A stretch of 64,000 bases of DNA, taken from assembly GCA_963705365.1 (NCBI GenBank), contig OY970074.1, forward strand, positions 866,064 to 930,063, read 5' to 3'. A program made the translations under genes and the position numbers. Numbering within the stretch: the stretch's first letter is position 1; every line of letters starts with the position of its first letter. Shown piece after piece: positions 5,692 to 62,672 of this stretch. Source of the stretch: an uncultured Solirubrobacterales bacterium (GTDB lineage: Bacteria; Actinomycetota; Thermoleophilia; Solirubrobacterales; 70-9). The notes beneath the pieces are model-generated. The model was not told the origin of the DNA and did not search any database. It saw nothing but the letters and a program-made list of their open reading frames with translations.

Positions 5692-6201
5692 ATGGAGGCG
5701 AAGAGTTTCGACAAGGGGATCCTCGACGGCGACAGCTCCGCCACGCGGGACCACGTCGTCGAGCTGCTGACTAAGGCGTACTGGATGGAGATCGAGACGG
5801 TGATGAGCTACCTCGCCGCCTCGACCAACCTGGACGGGGTTCGCGCGCAGGAGATCAAGGAGTCCCTCGCCGAGGACATCGAAGAGGAGCTCGGCCACGC
5901 CCGCCAGTTCGCGGCCCGGATCAAGGAGCTCTACGGCGTCGTTCCCGGCTCGGAGGACTTCCGCGCCGAACAGAGCTTCCTGCAGCCGCCAGAGCACCAG
6001 ACCGACACCGTCCACGTGATCCGCGGCGTGATCAAGGCCGAGACCGGCGCGATCGAGCACTACACGCGGATGATCGAGGAGACCGACGCGGTCGATCCGG
6101 TCACCCAGGACATGGTGATCGGCATCCTGCGTGATGAGCAGGCGCACCGGCGGTTGTTCGAGGGGTTCTTGCGGGAGTATGAGTTCGAAGGGAAGGCCTG
6201 A
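5692..6201 (+). CDS. ferritin-like (bacterioferritin/Dps superfamily) domain protein
   Basis: 169 aa. Four-helix-bundle pattern with paired ExxH-type motifs (EEELGHARQF, LRDEQAHRRLF). Confidence 0.7.
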   Translation: MEAKSFDKGILDGDSSATRDHVVELLTKAYWMEIETVMSYLAASTNLDGVRAQEIKESLAEDIEEELGHARQFAARIKELYGVVPGSEDFRAEQSFLQPPEHQTDTVHVIRGVIKAETGAIEHYTRMIEETDAVDPVTQDMVIGILRDEQAHRRLFEGFLREYEFEGKA

Positions 6202-6216
6202 GGCGGGGTGATGGGA

Positions 6217-6357
6217 GGGACCTGGTCGCCCTCCAGTCGAATTAGTCGCGCACCCTTCGGGTGCGGCTCCGGATGATGGTGCGCGCCTATGGCGCGCAGG
6301 AGTCGGATTGCATGTCGCGGCCTGCGGCCACATTCGACTGGAGGGCGACCAGGCCCC
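6217..6357 (+). repeat. family-1 nested-hairpin intergenic element, copy A (GCTCCGGATGAT / GATTGCATGTCGC core)
   Basis: 6221-6242 pairs perfectly with 6332-6353 (22 bp). The 89-nt core aligns with cores at 40586-40677 (+) and 40855-40944 (-). Confidence 0.9.
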
Positions 6358-6387
6358 TCGCCAACACGTCGCCTAGGCTCATTTGCT

Positions 6388-6897
6388 GTGACAGGCACTG
6401 AGGGGAACCTGCGGATTCGGCCGGCGACGGAGGGGGATGTTGAGACTCTCTTTGGGCTGATCCTGGAGTTGGCGGAGTATGAGAAATTGAGCGATGTGAT
6501 GCGGGGGGATGCGGAGGTGCTGCGGCGTTCGTTGTTCGAGCAGCGGGCGGCGGAGGCGCTGATGGTTGAAGTCGGTGGAGAGGCGGTCGGCTACGCGATC
6601 TTCTTCACCACCTTCTCGACCTTCGAGTGCCGCTCCGGCGTCTGGGTCGAGGATGTCTACGTGCGGCCCTCGCATCGTCGCGACGGCATCGGCCGGGCGG
6701 TCATGGAGCACCTCGCGGCGCTGACTCTGGAGCGCGGTCACGTCCGCCTCGAATGGTGCGCGCTCGAGTGGAATGAGCCGGCGCTGCGCTTCTACGACAA
6801 GCTCGGCGCCACCCGGCTCGAGGAGTGGCGGATGCTGCGCCTCGAGCGCGAGGGCATGCAGCGGCTCGCGGGCGATGGGCCGATAAGTCGACCCTGA
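6388..6897 (+). CDS. GNAT family N-acetyltransferase (diamine/SSAT-like)
   Basis: Track ORF 6289..6897. The first 33 codons run through repeat A, so GTG 6388 (VTGTEGNLRIRPATEGDVE) is preferred. The GNAT acetyl-CoA region is RRDGIGRAVMEHL. Confidence 0.8.
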   Translation: MTGTEGNLRIRPATEGDVETLFGLILELAEYEKLSDVMRGDAEVLRRSLFEQRAAEALMVEVGGEAVGYAIFFTTFSTFECRSGVWVEDVYVRPSHRRDGIGRAVMEHLAALTLERGHVRLEWCALEWNEPALRFYDKLGATRLEEWRMLRLEREGMQRLAGDGPISRP

Positions 6898-6916
6898 CTC
6901 GACTTATCGGCCCATC
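6874..6916. terminator. 18-bp perfect hairpin between convergent genes, overlapping the GNAT stop codon
   Basis: gatgggccgataagtcga (6874-6891), loop ccctgac, tcgacttatcggcccatc (6899-6916). No U-tract. Confidence 0.5.
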
Positions 6917-6928
6917 GGCCGGCGGTCG

Positions 6929-7135
6929 CTACTCCTCGCGCGGCGTGATGCGGAAGATCGAGACGACCTCGGCCTGGTGGGCCTCGGGGTGGGCTACGTA
7001 GGCGCTGGGGCCGCCACCGAACCAGCCTGCGGCTTCGTTGTCGCCGACGAAGACGCCTGGATGGCGCTTGCCGTCCCCGTCCTGGACCCAGACCTTGTCG
7101 CCCTCCCTGAACCCGTGCTCGATCGCCTCGCTCAT
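6929..7135 (-). CDS. hypothetical small protein (68 aa)
   Basis: ORF translationally coupled to the upstream VOC gene (adjacent at 7135). No recognised domain. Confidence 0.5.
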   Translation of the reverse strand: MSEAIEHGFREGDKVWVQDGDGKRHPGVFVGDNEAAGWFGGGPSAYVAHPEAHQAEVVSIFRITPREE

Positions 7136-20481: not shown

Positions 20482-20533
20482 GCGAACGCCAGGACTTTTG
20501 GACGCTATGGCAACAAAAAGTCCTGGCGTTCGC
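20482..20533. repeat. 18-bp perfect inverted repeat in a divergent promoter region
   Basis: gcgaacgccaggactttt (20482-20499) and aaaagtcctggcgttcgc (20516-20533) flank a 16-nt spacer. Confidence 0.8.
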
Positions 20534-38951: not shown

Positions 38952-39078
38952 CTTCTCCGGCGTTGCTTGGATCGACCGCGGAAGGGCCTGGCTGGTGACC
39001 GGCCCGGTCGGAAGGGGCCTCGCCTTCACGATCGACTTCGCGGCGGCCCTGCGCAGCTTCCTCGCCGGCCGCCGTGCC

Positions 39079-39124
39079 CGCTGAGGACTTTGACCTCGCC
39101 AGGGCGGGGTCAAAGTCCTCAGCG
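39079..39124. other. 17-bp perfect hairpin upstream of tig
   Basis: cgctgaggactttgacc (39079-39095), 12-nt loop, ggtcaaagtcctcagcg (39108-39124). Confidence 0.7.
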
Positions 39125-39161
39125 GCGCCCCGGCTCGCCGATCATCTAGGGTCGTCGGCCG

Positions 39162-40544
39162 ATGCAGACCTCTGTCAAAGAGCTGCCCGACTCGCGCGTC
39201 AGCGTCGAGGTCGAGGTTCCCGCCAAGGACGTCGAGCGCGCCACCTCGCGCGCCGCCCGGGCAATGGCAAAGGAGATGCGGATGCCCGGTTTTCGTCAGG
39301 GCAAGGCGCCGCCCTCGCTGGTGATCCAGCGGCTCGGCTTTGGGTCGGTGCTGCAGGAGGCGATCCGCGAGGCGCTGCCCGAGTGGTACGAAAGCGCTTT
39401 GCTCGACAGCGGCGTCTCGCCAATCGGCGATCCCAGCATCGAGATGGTTGCCACTCCCGAGGAAGAGGGCGAGCCGCTGGAGTTCAAGTTCGAGGTCGGC
39501 GTACGGCCCCCGGCGAAGCTGGGCGAGTACAAGGGCCTCGAGGTCGGCCGCAAGGAGAACGAGGTTCCCGACGACGTCGTCGATCGTGAGATCGAGCGGG
39601 TCCGGGAAAGCTTCGCCCGCCTGGAGCCGGTCGAACGCGCCGCGACGGATGGCGACTCGCTGCTGATCGACTTCGAGGGACTTATCGATGGCACCGCGTT
39701 CGAGGGCGGCAAGGCCGAGGACTACCTGCTCGAGCTCGGCTCGGGGCAGCTCATAGAGGGCTTCGAGGAGCAGCTTGCGGGTGCCGAGGCGGGGGACGAG
39801 CGGGAGGTGAAGGTGACCTTTCCGGCCGAATATCAGGCCGAGCACCTCGCTGGCAAAGATGCTGTCTTCAAAGTCAAGGTCAAAGAGGTGCGGGAGAAGA
39901 TCCTGCCCGAGCTCGACGACGACTTCGCCTCCGATGCGTCTGAGTTCGAGACCCTTGACGAGCTGCGCGCCGATATCCGCGAGAAAGTCGGAGAGGCACT
40001 GGCGGGCAGGGCCGAGGAAGACTTTCGCATCGCCGCCATCGACGCCGCAGTCGCCGTGGCGACGGTCGATGTGCCGGCGAGCCTGGTCACCGCCCGCGCG
40101 AGCGAACGCTGGGAGCGGATGGAACGGCAGCTGGCTCAGCGCGGGATGGATCCCAACACCTTCTTGCAGATGCAGGGCAAAACGCGTGAGGAACTGATTG
40201 AGGAATCGAAGCCCGACGCCGAGCGGGAGCTGAAACGCGAGGCGGTCGTCACCGCGATCGCCGCAGCGGAGGAGATCGAGGTCTCCGACGAGGAGCTGGT
40301 CGAGGCGCTCGAGCACAGCGCTCAGCACGAACGGACGACGCCGCAGAAGCTGCTCGAGCGGCTGCGCGAGAACGGTCGCGACTCGATGGTCGTCGAAGAC
40401 ATCAGGGCGCGCAAGGCGATCGAGCTGGTGGCGGAGTCGGCGGTGCCGATCCCGGTCGAGCAGGCGGAGGCGCGTGAGCAGATTTGGACGCCGGAGAAAG
40501 AGCGGGAGAAAGCCGGGGGGCTCTGGACGCCTGACTCCGAGTAG
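39162..40544 (+). CDS. tig: trigger factor
   Basis: 460 aa with FRQGKAP and an internal FKBP-type PPIase domain. Confidence 0.93.
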   Translation: MQTSVKELPDSRVSVEVEVPAKDVERATSRAARAMAKEMRMPGFRQGKAPPSLVIQRLGFGSVLQEAIREALPEWYESALLDSGVSPIGDPSIEMVATPEEEGEPLEFKFEVGVRPPAKLGEYKGLEVGRKENEVPDDVVDREIERVRESFARLEPVERAATDGDSLLIDFEGLIDGTAFEGGKAEDYLLELGSGQLIEGFEEQLAGAEAGDEREVKVTFPAEYQAEHLAGKDAVFKVKVKEVREKILPELDDDFASDASEFETLDELRADIREKVGEALAGRAEEDFRIAAIDAAVAVATVDVPASLVTARASERWERMERQLAQRGMDPNTFLQMQGKTREELIEESKPDAERELKREAVVTAIAAAEEIEVSDEELVEALEHSAQHERTTPQKLLERLRENGRDSMVVEDIRARKAIELVAESAVPIPVEQAEAREQIWTPEKEREKAGGLWTPDSE

Positions 40545-40555
40545 CGCGGGGCGGG

Positions 40556-40707
40556 GGAGGGGTGTCGGTAGTGCCCCGCGGGAATTGGGTCGCGCGCCCT
40601 GCGGGCGCGGCTCCGGATGATTGTGCGCCCCTCTGGGGCGCAGATGACAGATTGCATGTCGCGCCCCTTCGGGGCACATTCCCGCGGGGCACTACCGACA
40701 CCCCTCC
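40556..40707 (+). repeat. family-1 nested-hairpin element, copy B
   Basis: The perfect 30-bp outer stem pairs 40556-40585 with 40678-40707. The core 40586-40677 aligns with copies A and C. Confidence 0.9.
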
Positions 40708-40822
40708 ACGCACGAGCTCCAAGCAGGCGCCCGGCTCCCGGCAGCTTTTGCGAAAGCTGACGATCCTCGGCCGCTCCGACAGGCAGAAAGCTTCCACCCT
40801 GAGCTGTCCCAGGCTGCGTGTT

Positions 40823-40975
40823 GGAGGAGGGGTCTGGCCATCCCCCGGGCGAATGTCGCCGCAGGCGGCGAAATGCAATCTCATTATCTGCCCGCCATAG
40901 GCGGGCACCATCATCCGGAGCCGCACCCGAAGGGTGCGCGACAAATTCGCGCGCGGGGGTGCCGGCATCCCTCCC
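40823..40975 (-). repeat. family-1 nested-hairpin element, copy C (inverted relative to B)
   Basis: The reverse complement of 40855-40944 aligns with the A and B cores. The outer stem is imperfect (40842-40854 with 40945-40959, plus degenerate extension). Confidence 0.85.
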
Positions 40976-41020
40976 TCACTGCGCTCAGCCACGCTGGACG
41001 CCTTCTATAGAGTGCGATCC

Positions 41021-41605
41021 ATGAGCCCTCTGGTCCCAATGGTGGTCGAGCAGACGTCGCGCGGGGAGCGGGCGTTTGACATTTATTCGCGCCTGCTGGG
41101 CGAGCGCATCATCTTTCTGGGGACGCCGGTGACCGAGGACATCGCGAATCTGATCGTGGCCCAGCTCCTGCATCTGGAGTCGGAGGATCCGGACAAGGAC
41201 GTCAGCCTCTACATCAACTCGCCCGGCGGTTCTGTCTACGCCGGGCTGGCGATCTACGACACGATGCAGTTCATCAAGCCCGACGTCCAGACGATCTGCG
41301 TCGGCGTCGCGATGAGCATGGGGGCGCTGCTGCTCAGCGGCGGCGCGGCCGGCAAGCGGATGGCCCTGCCGAACTCAAAGATCCTCATTCACCAGGTCTC
41401 CGCGGGGTTCCAGGGCCAGGCCACCGACATCGAGATCCACGCCAGAGAGATCATCGACGTCCGTCGCCGGCTCGACGAGATCATCGCCAAGCACACCGGC
41501 CAGTCGTTCGAGAAGGTCACTCAGGACACCGAACGCGACTACTTCATGAGCGCTGCGGAGGCGAAGGAGTACAGCATCGTCGACCGCGTCATCGAGCACC
41601 ACTGA
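41021..41605 (+). CDS. clpP: ATP-dependent Clp protease proteolytic subunit
   Basis: ATG 41021 ([26 protein letters not shown]). The upstream part of track ORF 40934..41605 runs through repeat C. The catalytic Ser context is GVAMSMGA. Confidence 0.93.
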
Positions 41606-45086: not shown

Positions 45087-45207
45087 GGAAGGGGCGGGGC
45101 ACCCCTTTCTCGGAGCACCTCGTCGGGAGTGTCGCCTTCGGCTGCCGCCCGGAGGCTGCCGGCCCTCCTCATGCTGAGTACCGAGGAAGGGGTGCCCCGC
45201 CCCTTCC
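45087..45207 (+). repeat. family-2 nested-hairpin element, copy D (AGCACCTC ... CATGCTGAGTA core)
   Basis: The perfect 21-bp outer stem pairs 45087-45107 with 45187-45207. Confidence 0.88.
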
Positions 45208-45290
45208 CCGACACGCCTTCGCGGAACGGCTGGACTAACGGCGCTATTGAAAGCTGCCGCACCGCGCAGCGTCTGCTGGAGCTCGGTTGT

Positions 45291-45417
45291 GGGGAGGGTG
45301 CCGGTGGGGGTCTCCCGGTACTCAGCATGGAGCCGAGCCACTGTGGACCGGGGCGTCAGCCAATTGCCGCTTCTCTCGGCGGAGGTGCTCCGGGAGACCC
45401 TCACCGGCACCCTCCCC
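45291..45417 (-). repeat. family-2 nested-hairpin element, copy E (inverted relative to D)
   Basis: The 28-bp outer stem, with one mismatch, pairs 45291-45318 with 45390-45417. The core carries tactcagcatg and ggaggtgct, the reverse complements of the copy D motifs. Confidence 0.88.
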
Positions 45418-45446
45418 ACATAGGCGCACCTATCTAGACTCGCCGC

Positions 45447-50210: not shown

Positions 50211-50586
50211 CGCCTTCGAACGCGCCCTCACTGGCGAGGTAATTGCCCGCTTCGAGCGCAAGGGGCTTCGCATCGCCGCCCTCAAGTCGATGCGCGCCGA
50301 CGAGTCGATCGCCAACGCTCACTATGCGGAGCACGCCGAGAAGCCGTTCTTCGGCGAGCTCGTCTCCTTCATCACCGGCGGCACGCTGGTGGCGATGGTG
50401 CTCGAGGGCTCCGAAGCGGTGCCGGCGGCCCGCCAGCTGATCGGGGCGACCAACCCGGTCGAGGCGGCGCCCGGTTCAATCCGCGGGGACTTTGCGCTGG
50501 AGGTCACCTTCAACATGGTGCATGGGTCCGACTCGGATGAGTCGGCTGAGCGCGAGATTGGGATCTGGTTTCCCGAGCTGGCGTAG
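50179..50586 (+). CDS. ndk: nucleoside-diphosphate kinase
   Basis: 135 aa. LILVKPDAF; the active-site His is in NMVHGSDS. Confidence 0.93.
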
Positions 50587-50702
50587 TGGCGGGGATCCGG
50601 GTAGGGGCTGCACTTAACTTTTTCGTGGGGCGCCGGCGGCCGTTCGAGATTCGCGGCGGCGAAAAAGTACAAGGCGTTCCGCCCCTACCCGGATCCCCGC
50701 CA
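50587..50702 (+). repeat. family-3 nested-hairpin element, copy F (TTTTCG ... CGAAAA core)
   Basis: The perfect 22-bp outer stem pairs 50587-50608 with 50681-50702. It spans the whole ndk-maf spacer and ends on the A of the maf ATG. Confidence 0.88.
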
Positions 50703-51289
50703 TGAGCGGAGCACGGGAATCCAGCTTGATCTCGAAGCGGGTGGTTCTGGCGTCCGGGTCGCCTCAGCGGAGGGAGATCCTCTCCAAGCTCGGCATCGAG
50801 TTCGAGGTTTTGGTGCCTGGCGTGGAGGAGCTCACCGGGGGAGACCCGGAGGTTGAGGTGGTGGAGAACGCTCGGTTGAAGGCTCGGGCGGTTGCGGCGG
50901 GCGCGGATGATTTGGTCATCGGCTGCGATACCGATGTCGTGCTCGATGGGAAGGCGTTGGGGAAGCCGGCGGATGAGGTGGAGGCGCGCCGGTATCTCGA
51001 TCGGATGGCGGGGCGGGCGCATACCGTGATGAGCGGGCTCGTCGTCCGCGAGGGTGGGGAGGAGCGAAGCGGGCTGGAACGGACCTCGGTGGTCTTCAAG
51101 GAGCTCTCGGAGGCCGAGAAGGAGCGGTACGTGGGGTTCGGGGAGTGGCGGGGGCGGTCGGGGGGGTATGCGATCCAGACCCTGGGCTCGACGCTGGTGG
51201 AGCGGGTCGAGGGGAGCGTCTCGAACGTGGTCGGGCTGCCGGTGGGGTTGCTGCTGGAGCTCGCCCCTCGCCTGTTCACACCTGCCTGA
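50702..51289 (+). CDS. maf: Maf family nucleotide pyrophosphatase
   Basis: 195 aa with [14 protein letters not shown] and GAYGIQ-like GGYAIQ. Confidence 0.88.
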
Positions 51290-61030: not shown

Positions 61031-61155
61031 GGGAGGGGCCGAGGGGTCCCTCCCATTTCGCTGGGATTTTCGCCGTTAGCGCCGCGTCTCTCGCCGCGAG
61101 CTCCGCTGCGAAAATCAGGGACGCCGCTCATGGGAGGGACCCCTCGGCCCCTCCC
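61031..61155 (-). repeat. family-3 nested-hairpin element, copy G
   Basis: The perfect 25-bp outer stem pairs 61031-61055 with 61131-61155. An inner inverted repeat is gattttcgc...gcgaaaatc. Confidence 0.88.
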
Positions 61156-62555: not shown

Positions 62556-62672
62556 GCCCGGTCGGGTGTCCCTCCCGCTGCGCTGTCGTTTTCGCTCGGA
62601 AACTCTGTGGCCTCGCGAGGTTCGGGTGGGCGAAAACGTAGCGCCGCTTGCGGGAGGGACACCCGACCGGGC
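62556..62672 (+). repeat. family-3 nested-hairpin element, copy H
   Basis: The perfect 23-bp outer stem pairs 62556-62578 with 62650-62672. An inner inverted repeat is cgttttcgc...gcgaaaacg. Confidence 0.88.

Follow-up and report, generated by a model that had tools for sequence, protein, structure and literature searches.

The closest described counterparts of the repeats reported here are palindromic elements that lie between genes. The BIMEs of enterobacteria are extragenic composites at gene ends; their palindromic units, 35-40-nt REP hairpins of Y and Z types, alternate in orientation, are linked through a few conserved motifs, and combine into mosaics that some orthologous sites have and others lack. 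Correia elements (Neisseria), ERIC (enterobacteria) and bcr1 (Bacillus cereus group) measure 100-170 nt, have terminal inverted repeats whose pairing gives a long stem, and occupy intergenic, co-transcribed positions, with proposed effects on termination and mRNA stability. An outer stem around small hairpins also characterizes AAV and parvovirus terminal repeats, Streptomyces telomere foldbacks and G4-type priming sites. We know of no target-site duplication for the RAYT-type transposase family. REPINs are defined in PMC3337134. They pair two inverted REPs of ~20-30 nt across a short spacer, occur beside single units, and persist in a lineage with their hairpin kept by compensatory changes. 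The closest lead in the literature is the long inverted repeats that flank RAYT-related TIRYT transposase genes, some of which share GGGGWSAS and some families of which occur as singles and dimers (PMC3733652).

We analysed a 64-kb stretch of Solirubrobacterales DNA (the window; 68% G+C) in which two copies of one repeat, B and C, occupy the spacer between tig and clpP. We favour, at a probability of roughly 0.6, the reading that B and C are mosaic palindromic repeats of Solirubrobacterales that are gained, lost and swapped at gene ends and form a hairpin barrier there. Their organisation is a mosaic of the BIME kind, with all the BIME features listed above except the unit type, the linker motifs here being T1, T2 and a central hairpin. 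Unlike BIMEs, the units are 155-nt four-way junctions arranged exclusively tail to tail, and the host belongs to a different phylum; BIMEs also bind DNA gyrase, IHF or Pol I, which these elements are not known to do. As in REPINs, the entity is two inverted units, singles exist, the repeat persists in a lineage and compensatory changes keep the hairpin; target-site duplications are likewise not seen. Unlike in REPINs, each unit is multi-hairpin, the two 155-nt junctions lie ~110 nt apart, and partners differ in outer stem and may differ in family. The GTAG tag of GTAG-type REPs appears in a minority of copies only.

Other known systems resemble the repeats in part. Size, terminal inverted repeats and intergenic position recall Correia, ERIC and bcr1. 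In contrast to such MITE-like repeats, ours come with no target-site duplication and, in the window and ~150 loci, no parental insertion sequence, their terminal repeats vary between copies yet stay self-complementary, and the doublet arrangement is obligatory. With the multi-hairpin single-stranded DNA structures they share strict Watson-Crick pairing, a triloop in hairpin 3 and copies that face each other inverted, but they are chromosomal, internal and numerous, at ~420 nt per composite. That likeness is a resemblance only and indicates no role in replication or priming.

The tig-clpP spacer and its two repeat copies

The spacer and its flanking genes comprise the following features, to which copy A, elsewhere in the window, is added:

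6211-6366, plus strand: copy A, a lone family-1 module situated 9 nt past the stop of ORF 5692-6201
39162-40544, plus strand: tig (trigger factor), from the ORF list, with homologues carrying Trigger_N, FKBP_C and Trigger_C
40554-40712, plus strand: copy B, a family-1 module (family-model match of 156 bits, fold, covariation)
40708-40720, plus strand: T1 (ACGCACGAGCTCC), the start of the copy B 3' tail (flank tables, alignment)
40742-40759, plus strand: 7-bp linker hairpin CAGCTTT-TGCG-AAAGCTG
40782-40820, minus strand: T2 (CACGCAGCCTGGGACAGCTCAGGGTGGAAGCT...), the copy C 3' tail
40821-40976, minus strand: copy C, a family-1 module (family-model match of 133 bits, fold, alignment)
41008-41013, plus strand: -10-like hexamer TAGAGT, 7 nt 5' of the clpP ATG
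41021-41605, plus strand: clpP, 194 aa, ATG at 41021-41023, in frame with ORF 40934-41605

Copies B and C form an inverted pair from one repeat family. A first-pass annotation made from the sequence had described them so, and every detail of its description is confirmed. Family-model matches and alignment place B on the plus strand and C on the minus strand, with 76% identity over 153 nt. The core motif GGCTCCGGATGATNGTGC has exactly three occurrences in the whole window, one in each of A, B and C, where 0.42 would be expected. The long spacer does measure 476 nt, from the tig stop codon (TAG, 40542-40544), which lies 9 nt 5' of the family-model match to copy B, to the clpP ATG. Taken as 40556-40707 and 40823-40975, the copies leave the reported gap of 115 nt, and the 7-bp hairpin described within it is present. 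What had been overlooked is that this gap is no free spacer: it consists of the conserved tails of both elements. T1 recurs beside modules at unrelated loci, and the linker hairpin has counterparts in the spacers of loci L029 and L151 and in a doublet at an unrelated locus, L004; the L027 spacer has only a related GGCAGCTT stretch in its place. The dismissal of the listed clpP start at 40934 was also right: the 194-aa ClpP of relatives matches ATG 41021, with calls of 194 aa in nine of ten and of 188 aa in L152.

The two copies differ in the state of their closing stems, again as first described. In copy B, outer stem P1 pairs 40556-40585 with 40678-40707 over 30 nt at 100% complementarity. 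It encloses hairpins 1 (40593-40609), 2 (40624-40642) and 3 (40663-40675), and the junction holds the conserved strings GAATT, GTCGCG, GGCTCCGGATGAT, GATTGCAT and ACATTC. Its predicted RNA fold has an energy of -119.9 kcal/mol (z = -10.9 against shuffled sequence), and its DNA folds score z = -9.6 and -10.9 on the two strands. The closing stem of copy C is degenerate and its fold reaches z = -2.6; copy C is therefore probably decaying.

Pairing between the copies accounts poorly for the doublet. On tig read-through, B and C could pair into a long double-stranded RNA cut by RNase III, uncoupling tig from clpP, a reading that we regard as improbable. The two are complementary (57 nt at 84%), and folding the spacer as one transcript, as the first pass had proposed, favours their pairing: the whole spacer reaches a minimum energy of -297 kcal/mol, and the two local folds give -130 and -97. 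However, the perfect 30-bp stem of copy B would form before copy C is transcribed. Single modules are also common, and since doublet partners often come from other subfamilies or unrelated families and are unable to pair, the reading cannot be general.

Fold, conservation and distribution of the family-1 module

The family-1 module is a four-way junction of ~155 nt, with an outer stem of ~30 bp around three hairpins and a 3' tail of roughly 45-60 nt. The four-helix unit described for copies B and C is thus a family trait, backed by covariation. A seed set of 20 copies yielded the consensus junction, with compensatory double changes in 34 of 50 pairs, and a covariance model was built from it. 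In the 39 genome copies that the model recovered, 95.7% of cells are paired, against 41-50% in shifted-partner controls, and covariation extends to 37 of 51 pairs. The model also recovered a further 142 copies from soil metagenomes, among which 41 of 51 pairs covary and 28 of the 30 outer-stem pairs are changed on both sides. Arms of the outer stem, the module's terminal inverted repeats, are 23-31 nt long. Modules begin with a GT(A/G)GGGGAGGG-like 5' end.

Unpaired bases of the module are better conserved than its stems. The junction strings GAATT, GTCGCG, GCTCC, GATTGCAT and ACATTC are nearly invariant across copies, and mean identity between copies is 74% in the core against 58% in the outer stem, which nonetheless stays complementary. 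This difference is evidence of purifying selection on single copies; a host function would be compatible with it as well. The modules could accordingly be cis-acting structured RNAs of host function in 3' UTRs, which selection maintains copy by copy and which do not spread as selfish DNA. Such RNAs might, for instance, act as stabilisers that bind protein, serve as processing sites, or form a self-cleaving or other catalytic fold. Heavy covariation and near-invariant junctions in genomes whose Tig proteins are only 86-90% identical speak for such RNAs, as do the better-conserved core and a consistent sense orientation immediately after stop codons. We hold this reading to be unlikely, but apparent purifying selection on the junction bases of individual copies keeps it a serious rival.

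The pairing itself is almost purely Watson-Crick, which argues against a host RNA. G.U pairs make up 0.6-0.7% and are rarer than A.C mismatches (1.5-1.6%), an unusual near-absence that sets the modules apart from known structured RNAs. Complementarity thus seems to be kept at the DNA level or on both strands. The loop of hairpin 3 is mostly C-TTC-G and reads C-GAA-G on the other strand; C-GAA-G is a compact DNA triloop type. The excess of A.C over G.U mismatches, with these GAA-type triloops, hints that the strand opposite to the model is the one that folds. DNA folding energies are equal for both strands, and the loops of hairpins 1 and 2 depart from the GAA-type pattern. A host RNA is also hard to reconcile with co-directional spacers, where the only likely transcript would carry one of the two modules in antisense.

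The repeats belong to a superfamily that, on the best-supported reading, is new and lineage-specific to soil Solirubrobacterales (Thermoleophilia). A gapped core pattern found 22 loci among species-representative genomes, 19 of them in metagenome-assembled genomes labelled Solirubrobacterales, Thermoleophilia or Actinomycetota, and soil metagenomes contributed at least 120 loci. The window's own Tig protein groups with Solirubrobacterales proteins. Collections of viral contigs, plasmids and phages held nothing similar, and the elements were nowhere described in our literature searches. Rfam, another point against a host RNA, gave no match at gathering thresholds over the whole window, and permissive E-values returned only chance-level matches (E ~3-8) across 40500-41050. 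A weak likeness to box C/D RNAs, with the idea of a k-turn, was considered and dropped because the would-be pairing positions vary without compensation across copies.

The window holds further palindromes of several kinds. Long-stem elements at 61031-61155 and 62556-62672 have near-perfect outer stems of 23-26 bp and a TTTTCGC...GCGAAAA core in common with a family-3 element in the tig-clpP spacer of L025; another, at 50565-50724, has 49-nt arms that are 80% complementary. With all families counted, the 64 kb contain about nine long-stem elements. Just 5' of the tig start, a near-perfect palindrome at 39078-39125 (23-nt arms, 96% complementary, 2-nt loop) is unrelated to GGGAGGG-type elements. 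Two strong palindromes of other type lie at 6860-6930 and 20482-20533; one has 32-nt arms at 84% complementarity, and the other is a perfect 18-bp hairpin with an A/T-rich inner end.

Doublet geometry, orthologous sites and possible mobility

Doublets follow a single geometry. All of the ~70 found are tail to tail, plus then minus, with 5' ends outward and 3' ends inward, and none is tandem or divergent. The REPIN/BIME-like layout proposed for B and C thus proved to be the obligatory arrangement of the family. Convergent doublets occupy 14 of ~20 genome loci, 43 of 78 metagenome loci and 12 more loci. Partner spacing runs from a 6-nt overlap to ~320 nt (median gap ~110 nt). Within a doublet the outer stems differ, and the two modules are often of separate subfamilies. 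Many apparent singles prove to be partnered in that geometry too, by a long-stem element from a different family or by a short GGGAGGGG-loop-CCCCTCCC hairpin.

Linkers are mosaics of shared motifs. Each linker is formed where two tails meet, frequently around a small AGCTTT...AAAGCT hairpin, and tails carry motif T1 (ACGnAnCGAGCTCC) or T2 (CACGCAnCAnCGGGACGGCCnAGGGTnCGGAAGCT). These end motifs are common to unrelated loci and to different module families, and the L004 doublet, at a locus without tig, aligns with the window doublet over its full length, linker included. T2 was also considered as a possible target motif in its own right. Among the 25 T2 matches listed, those checked out of 24 adjoin a module, and one, in the clpX-valS spacer of L029, lies clearly away from a family-1 module, in a linker without large modules. 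Downstream in the window, a family-2 doublet repeats the layout of B and C:

45087-45207, plus strand: first family-2 module, clpX-valS spacer
45288-45420, minus strand: second family-2 module, same spacer

It lies tail to tail, has the T1 motif and the core GCACCTC...CATGCTGAGT, and fills the spacer from the clpX stop (45075) to the valS start (45447).

The short GGGAGGGG-loop-CCCCTCCC hairpins sit where relatives or partners bear full modules. They occur at L028 11387-11420 and in the inner flanks of L037, L018 and L063. They could be deletion remnants of modules or ancestral simple terminator hairpins.

Orthologous tig-clpP spacers reveal insertion-type polymorphism. We compared ten, whose Tig proteins are 86-100% identical to that of the window:

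window: 476 nt, family-1 doublet
L023: 477 nt, family-1 doublet, flipped
L027: 500 nt, family-1 doublet
L026: 430 nt, degenerate family-1 copy and subfamily-1b copy
L024: 369 nt, family-2 module and module of another family
L029: 282 nt, single family-1 module
L151: 231 nt, single family-2 module
L025: 159 nt, single family-3 module
L028: 94 nt, 10-bp hairpin only
L152: ~86 nt, nothing

Two sites are empty (L028, L152), three hold singles of three families and five hold doublets. The T2-tailed module is on the left in L023 and on the right in the window and L027. This polymorphism, with one doublet flipped, identifies the tig-clpP doublet as a mosaic repeat of insertion type, similar to BIMEs and REPINs. 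It is not the conserved leader against which the first pass had proposed the comparison. The tig-clpP copies are not each other's nearest relatives, and therefore do not behave as a leader conserved at this site. Because relatives have no repeat, one copy or other families there, the doublet is dispensable for tig and clpP and is no clpP regulator. Sites that are empty or hold unrelated families in close relatives also count against a host RNA.

A conserved regulatory leader or attenuator of clpP is almost certainly the wrong description of the doublet. It would suit a long spacer with clpP co-directional with tig. It is contradicted by the two relatives whose spacers of ~86-94 nt lack the element, and it sits badly with a repeat present at dozens of unrelated loci and with a conserved -10-like box downstream of copy C.

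Two observations point to movement. Two contigs break off within copies, and in one metagenome-assembled genome, copies of a family-1 subfamily on two contigs (L014 662-825 and L020 1987-2147) match at 139 of 141 positions between unrelated flanks. The L020 copy has no 3' stem arm and abuts the tail of a neighbouring copy; a nested insertion there was considered and dropped because the supposed displaced arm matches too poorly, and we treat the copy as truncated. All other same-genome copies are at most 87% identical, and so give no sign of a recent burst. No target-site duplication was found around 64 doublets, where the longest k-mer common to both flanks averages 3.28, against 3.41 +/- 0.11 in shuffled pairings.

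Searches of the window and the collected loci for a mobiliser returned no candidate. A tblastn search with E. coli RayT against 1.19 Mb of sequence gave nothing credible, a weak match at L056 being an RpiR-like regulator, and none of ~150 loci showed a RAYT or TIRYT gene nearby. Neither the window nor these loci yielded a transposase flanked by a module pair or a parental autonomous element with the same ends, and long-range inverted repeats up to 5 kb apart in the window were chance pairs only. Wide doublets were inspected for cargo: in L124, two separate insertions enclose what is left of a GNAT acetyltransferase gene, L111 contains a nested hairpin, and in L002 nothing could be recognised. 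At L151, from a close relative, an IS1595-family transposase gene (5866-6762) lies ~1.3 kb downstream of the clpP start; short inverted repeats near it (GATGCGTATCCGGTT), probably its ends, bear no relation to the hairpin repeats.

Watson-Crick compensation, equal folding of both strands and the C-TTC-G/C-GAA-G loops lead us to infer a folded single-stranded DNA intermediate or repair within the palindrome. The module folds, as DNA or RNA, into its four-way junction, and two modules face each other around a linker made of their tails; on our favoured reading, mobility would proceed through a folded single-stranded intermediate with the enzyme encoded elsewhere. On this reading, composites are gained, lost, flipped and exchanged for sister-family modules over evolutionary time.

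A more radical version of this idea is tentative. The modules may be the folded single-stranded substrate of an undescribed mobilisation or recombination system, which would add, remove, flip and swap them at both ends of a conserved linker in gene-end regions, without target-site duplication and through an enzyme encoded elsewhere; or they may be host-domesticated, modular transcription insulators bound by a dedicated protein. If true, either reading would explain the Watson-Crick covariation and invariant junction bases, and likewise the obligatory tail-to-tail geometry and interchangeable module families.

Gene ends and the probable clpP promoter

The repeats sit at gene ends. A same-strand gene ends 0-68 nt upstream of the module 5' end in 21 of 33 genome copies. 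The genes on either side of 66 doublets are co-directional in 35 cases, convergent in 17, divergent in one and unclear in 13; a gene end adjoins 52 of the 53 with callable flanking genes, at a median stop-to-element distance of ~17 nt. Where the genes are co-directional, the second module adjoins the gene that follows. The mosaic repeats lodge between a stop codon and the promoter or stop codon of the neighbouring gene.

A promoter directly behind copy C, which the first pass overlooked, very probably belongs to clpP. TAGAGT stands 7 nt before the clpP ATG in all ten orthologous spacers. Comparable -10-like hexamers lie 6-8 nt 5' of the starts of clpP (TAGAGT, 41008-41013), valS (TAGACT, 45435-45440) and the GNAT-like gene after copy A (TAGGCT, 6374-6379). 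They suggest leaderless transcripts starting right behind the repeats. Leaderless promoters occur in actinobacteria. A scan with the sigma-70 consensus, which is of E. coli type, found no promoter. We infer that clpP is probably transcribed as a leaderless mRNA from its own promoter just 3' of copy C. With its start at 41021 behind the -10-like box, the doublet lies between the tig stop and the probable clpP promoter.

The effect of the doublet is most plausibly that of a hairpin barrier to transcription. A G+C-rich hairpin stands just after the tig stop, as in intrinsic terminators; a scan of 40400-41100 found no terminator-like site and no U-tract after the stems, whose tails are G+C-rich. 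As a strong barrier, the doublet would end or stabilise the tig transcript and insulate clpP, itself presumably started from the promoter just behind copy C.

These elements endow an abundant, uncultured group of soil Actinomycetota with an undescribed and richly structured repeat superfamily, and the ~180 aligned copies are a seed alignment ready for a new family model. Such hairpin repeats lead to wrong start-codon calls, as at the 40934 clpP start, and to broken assemblies, so recognising them improves the annotation of these metagenome-assembled genomes. Present knowledge of REPINs, BIMEs and MITEs accounts for neither the fixed tail-to-tail geometry nor the strict Watson-Crick compensation, nor for the replacement of one module family by another at a single site. 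An explanation could reveal a new mode by which palindromic repeats spread or come to insulate gene ends.
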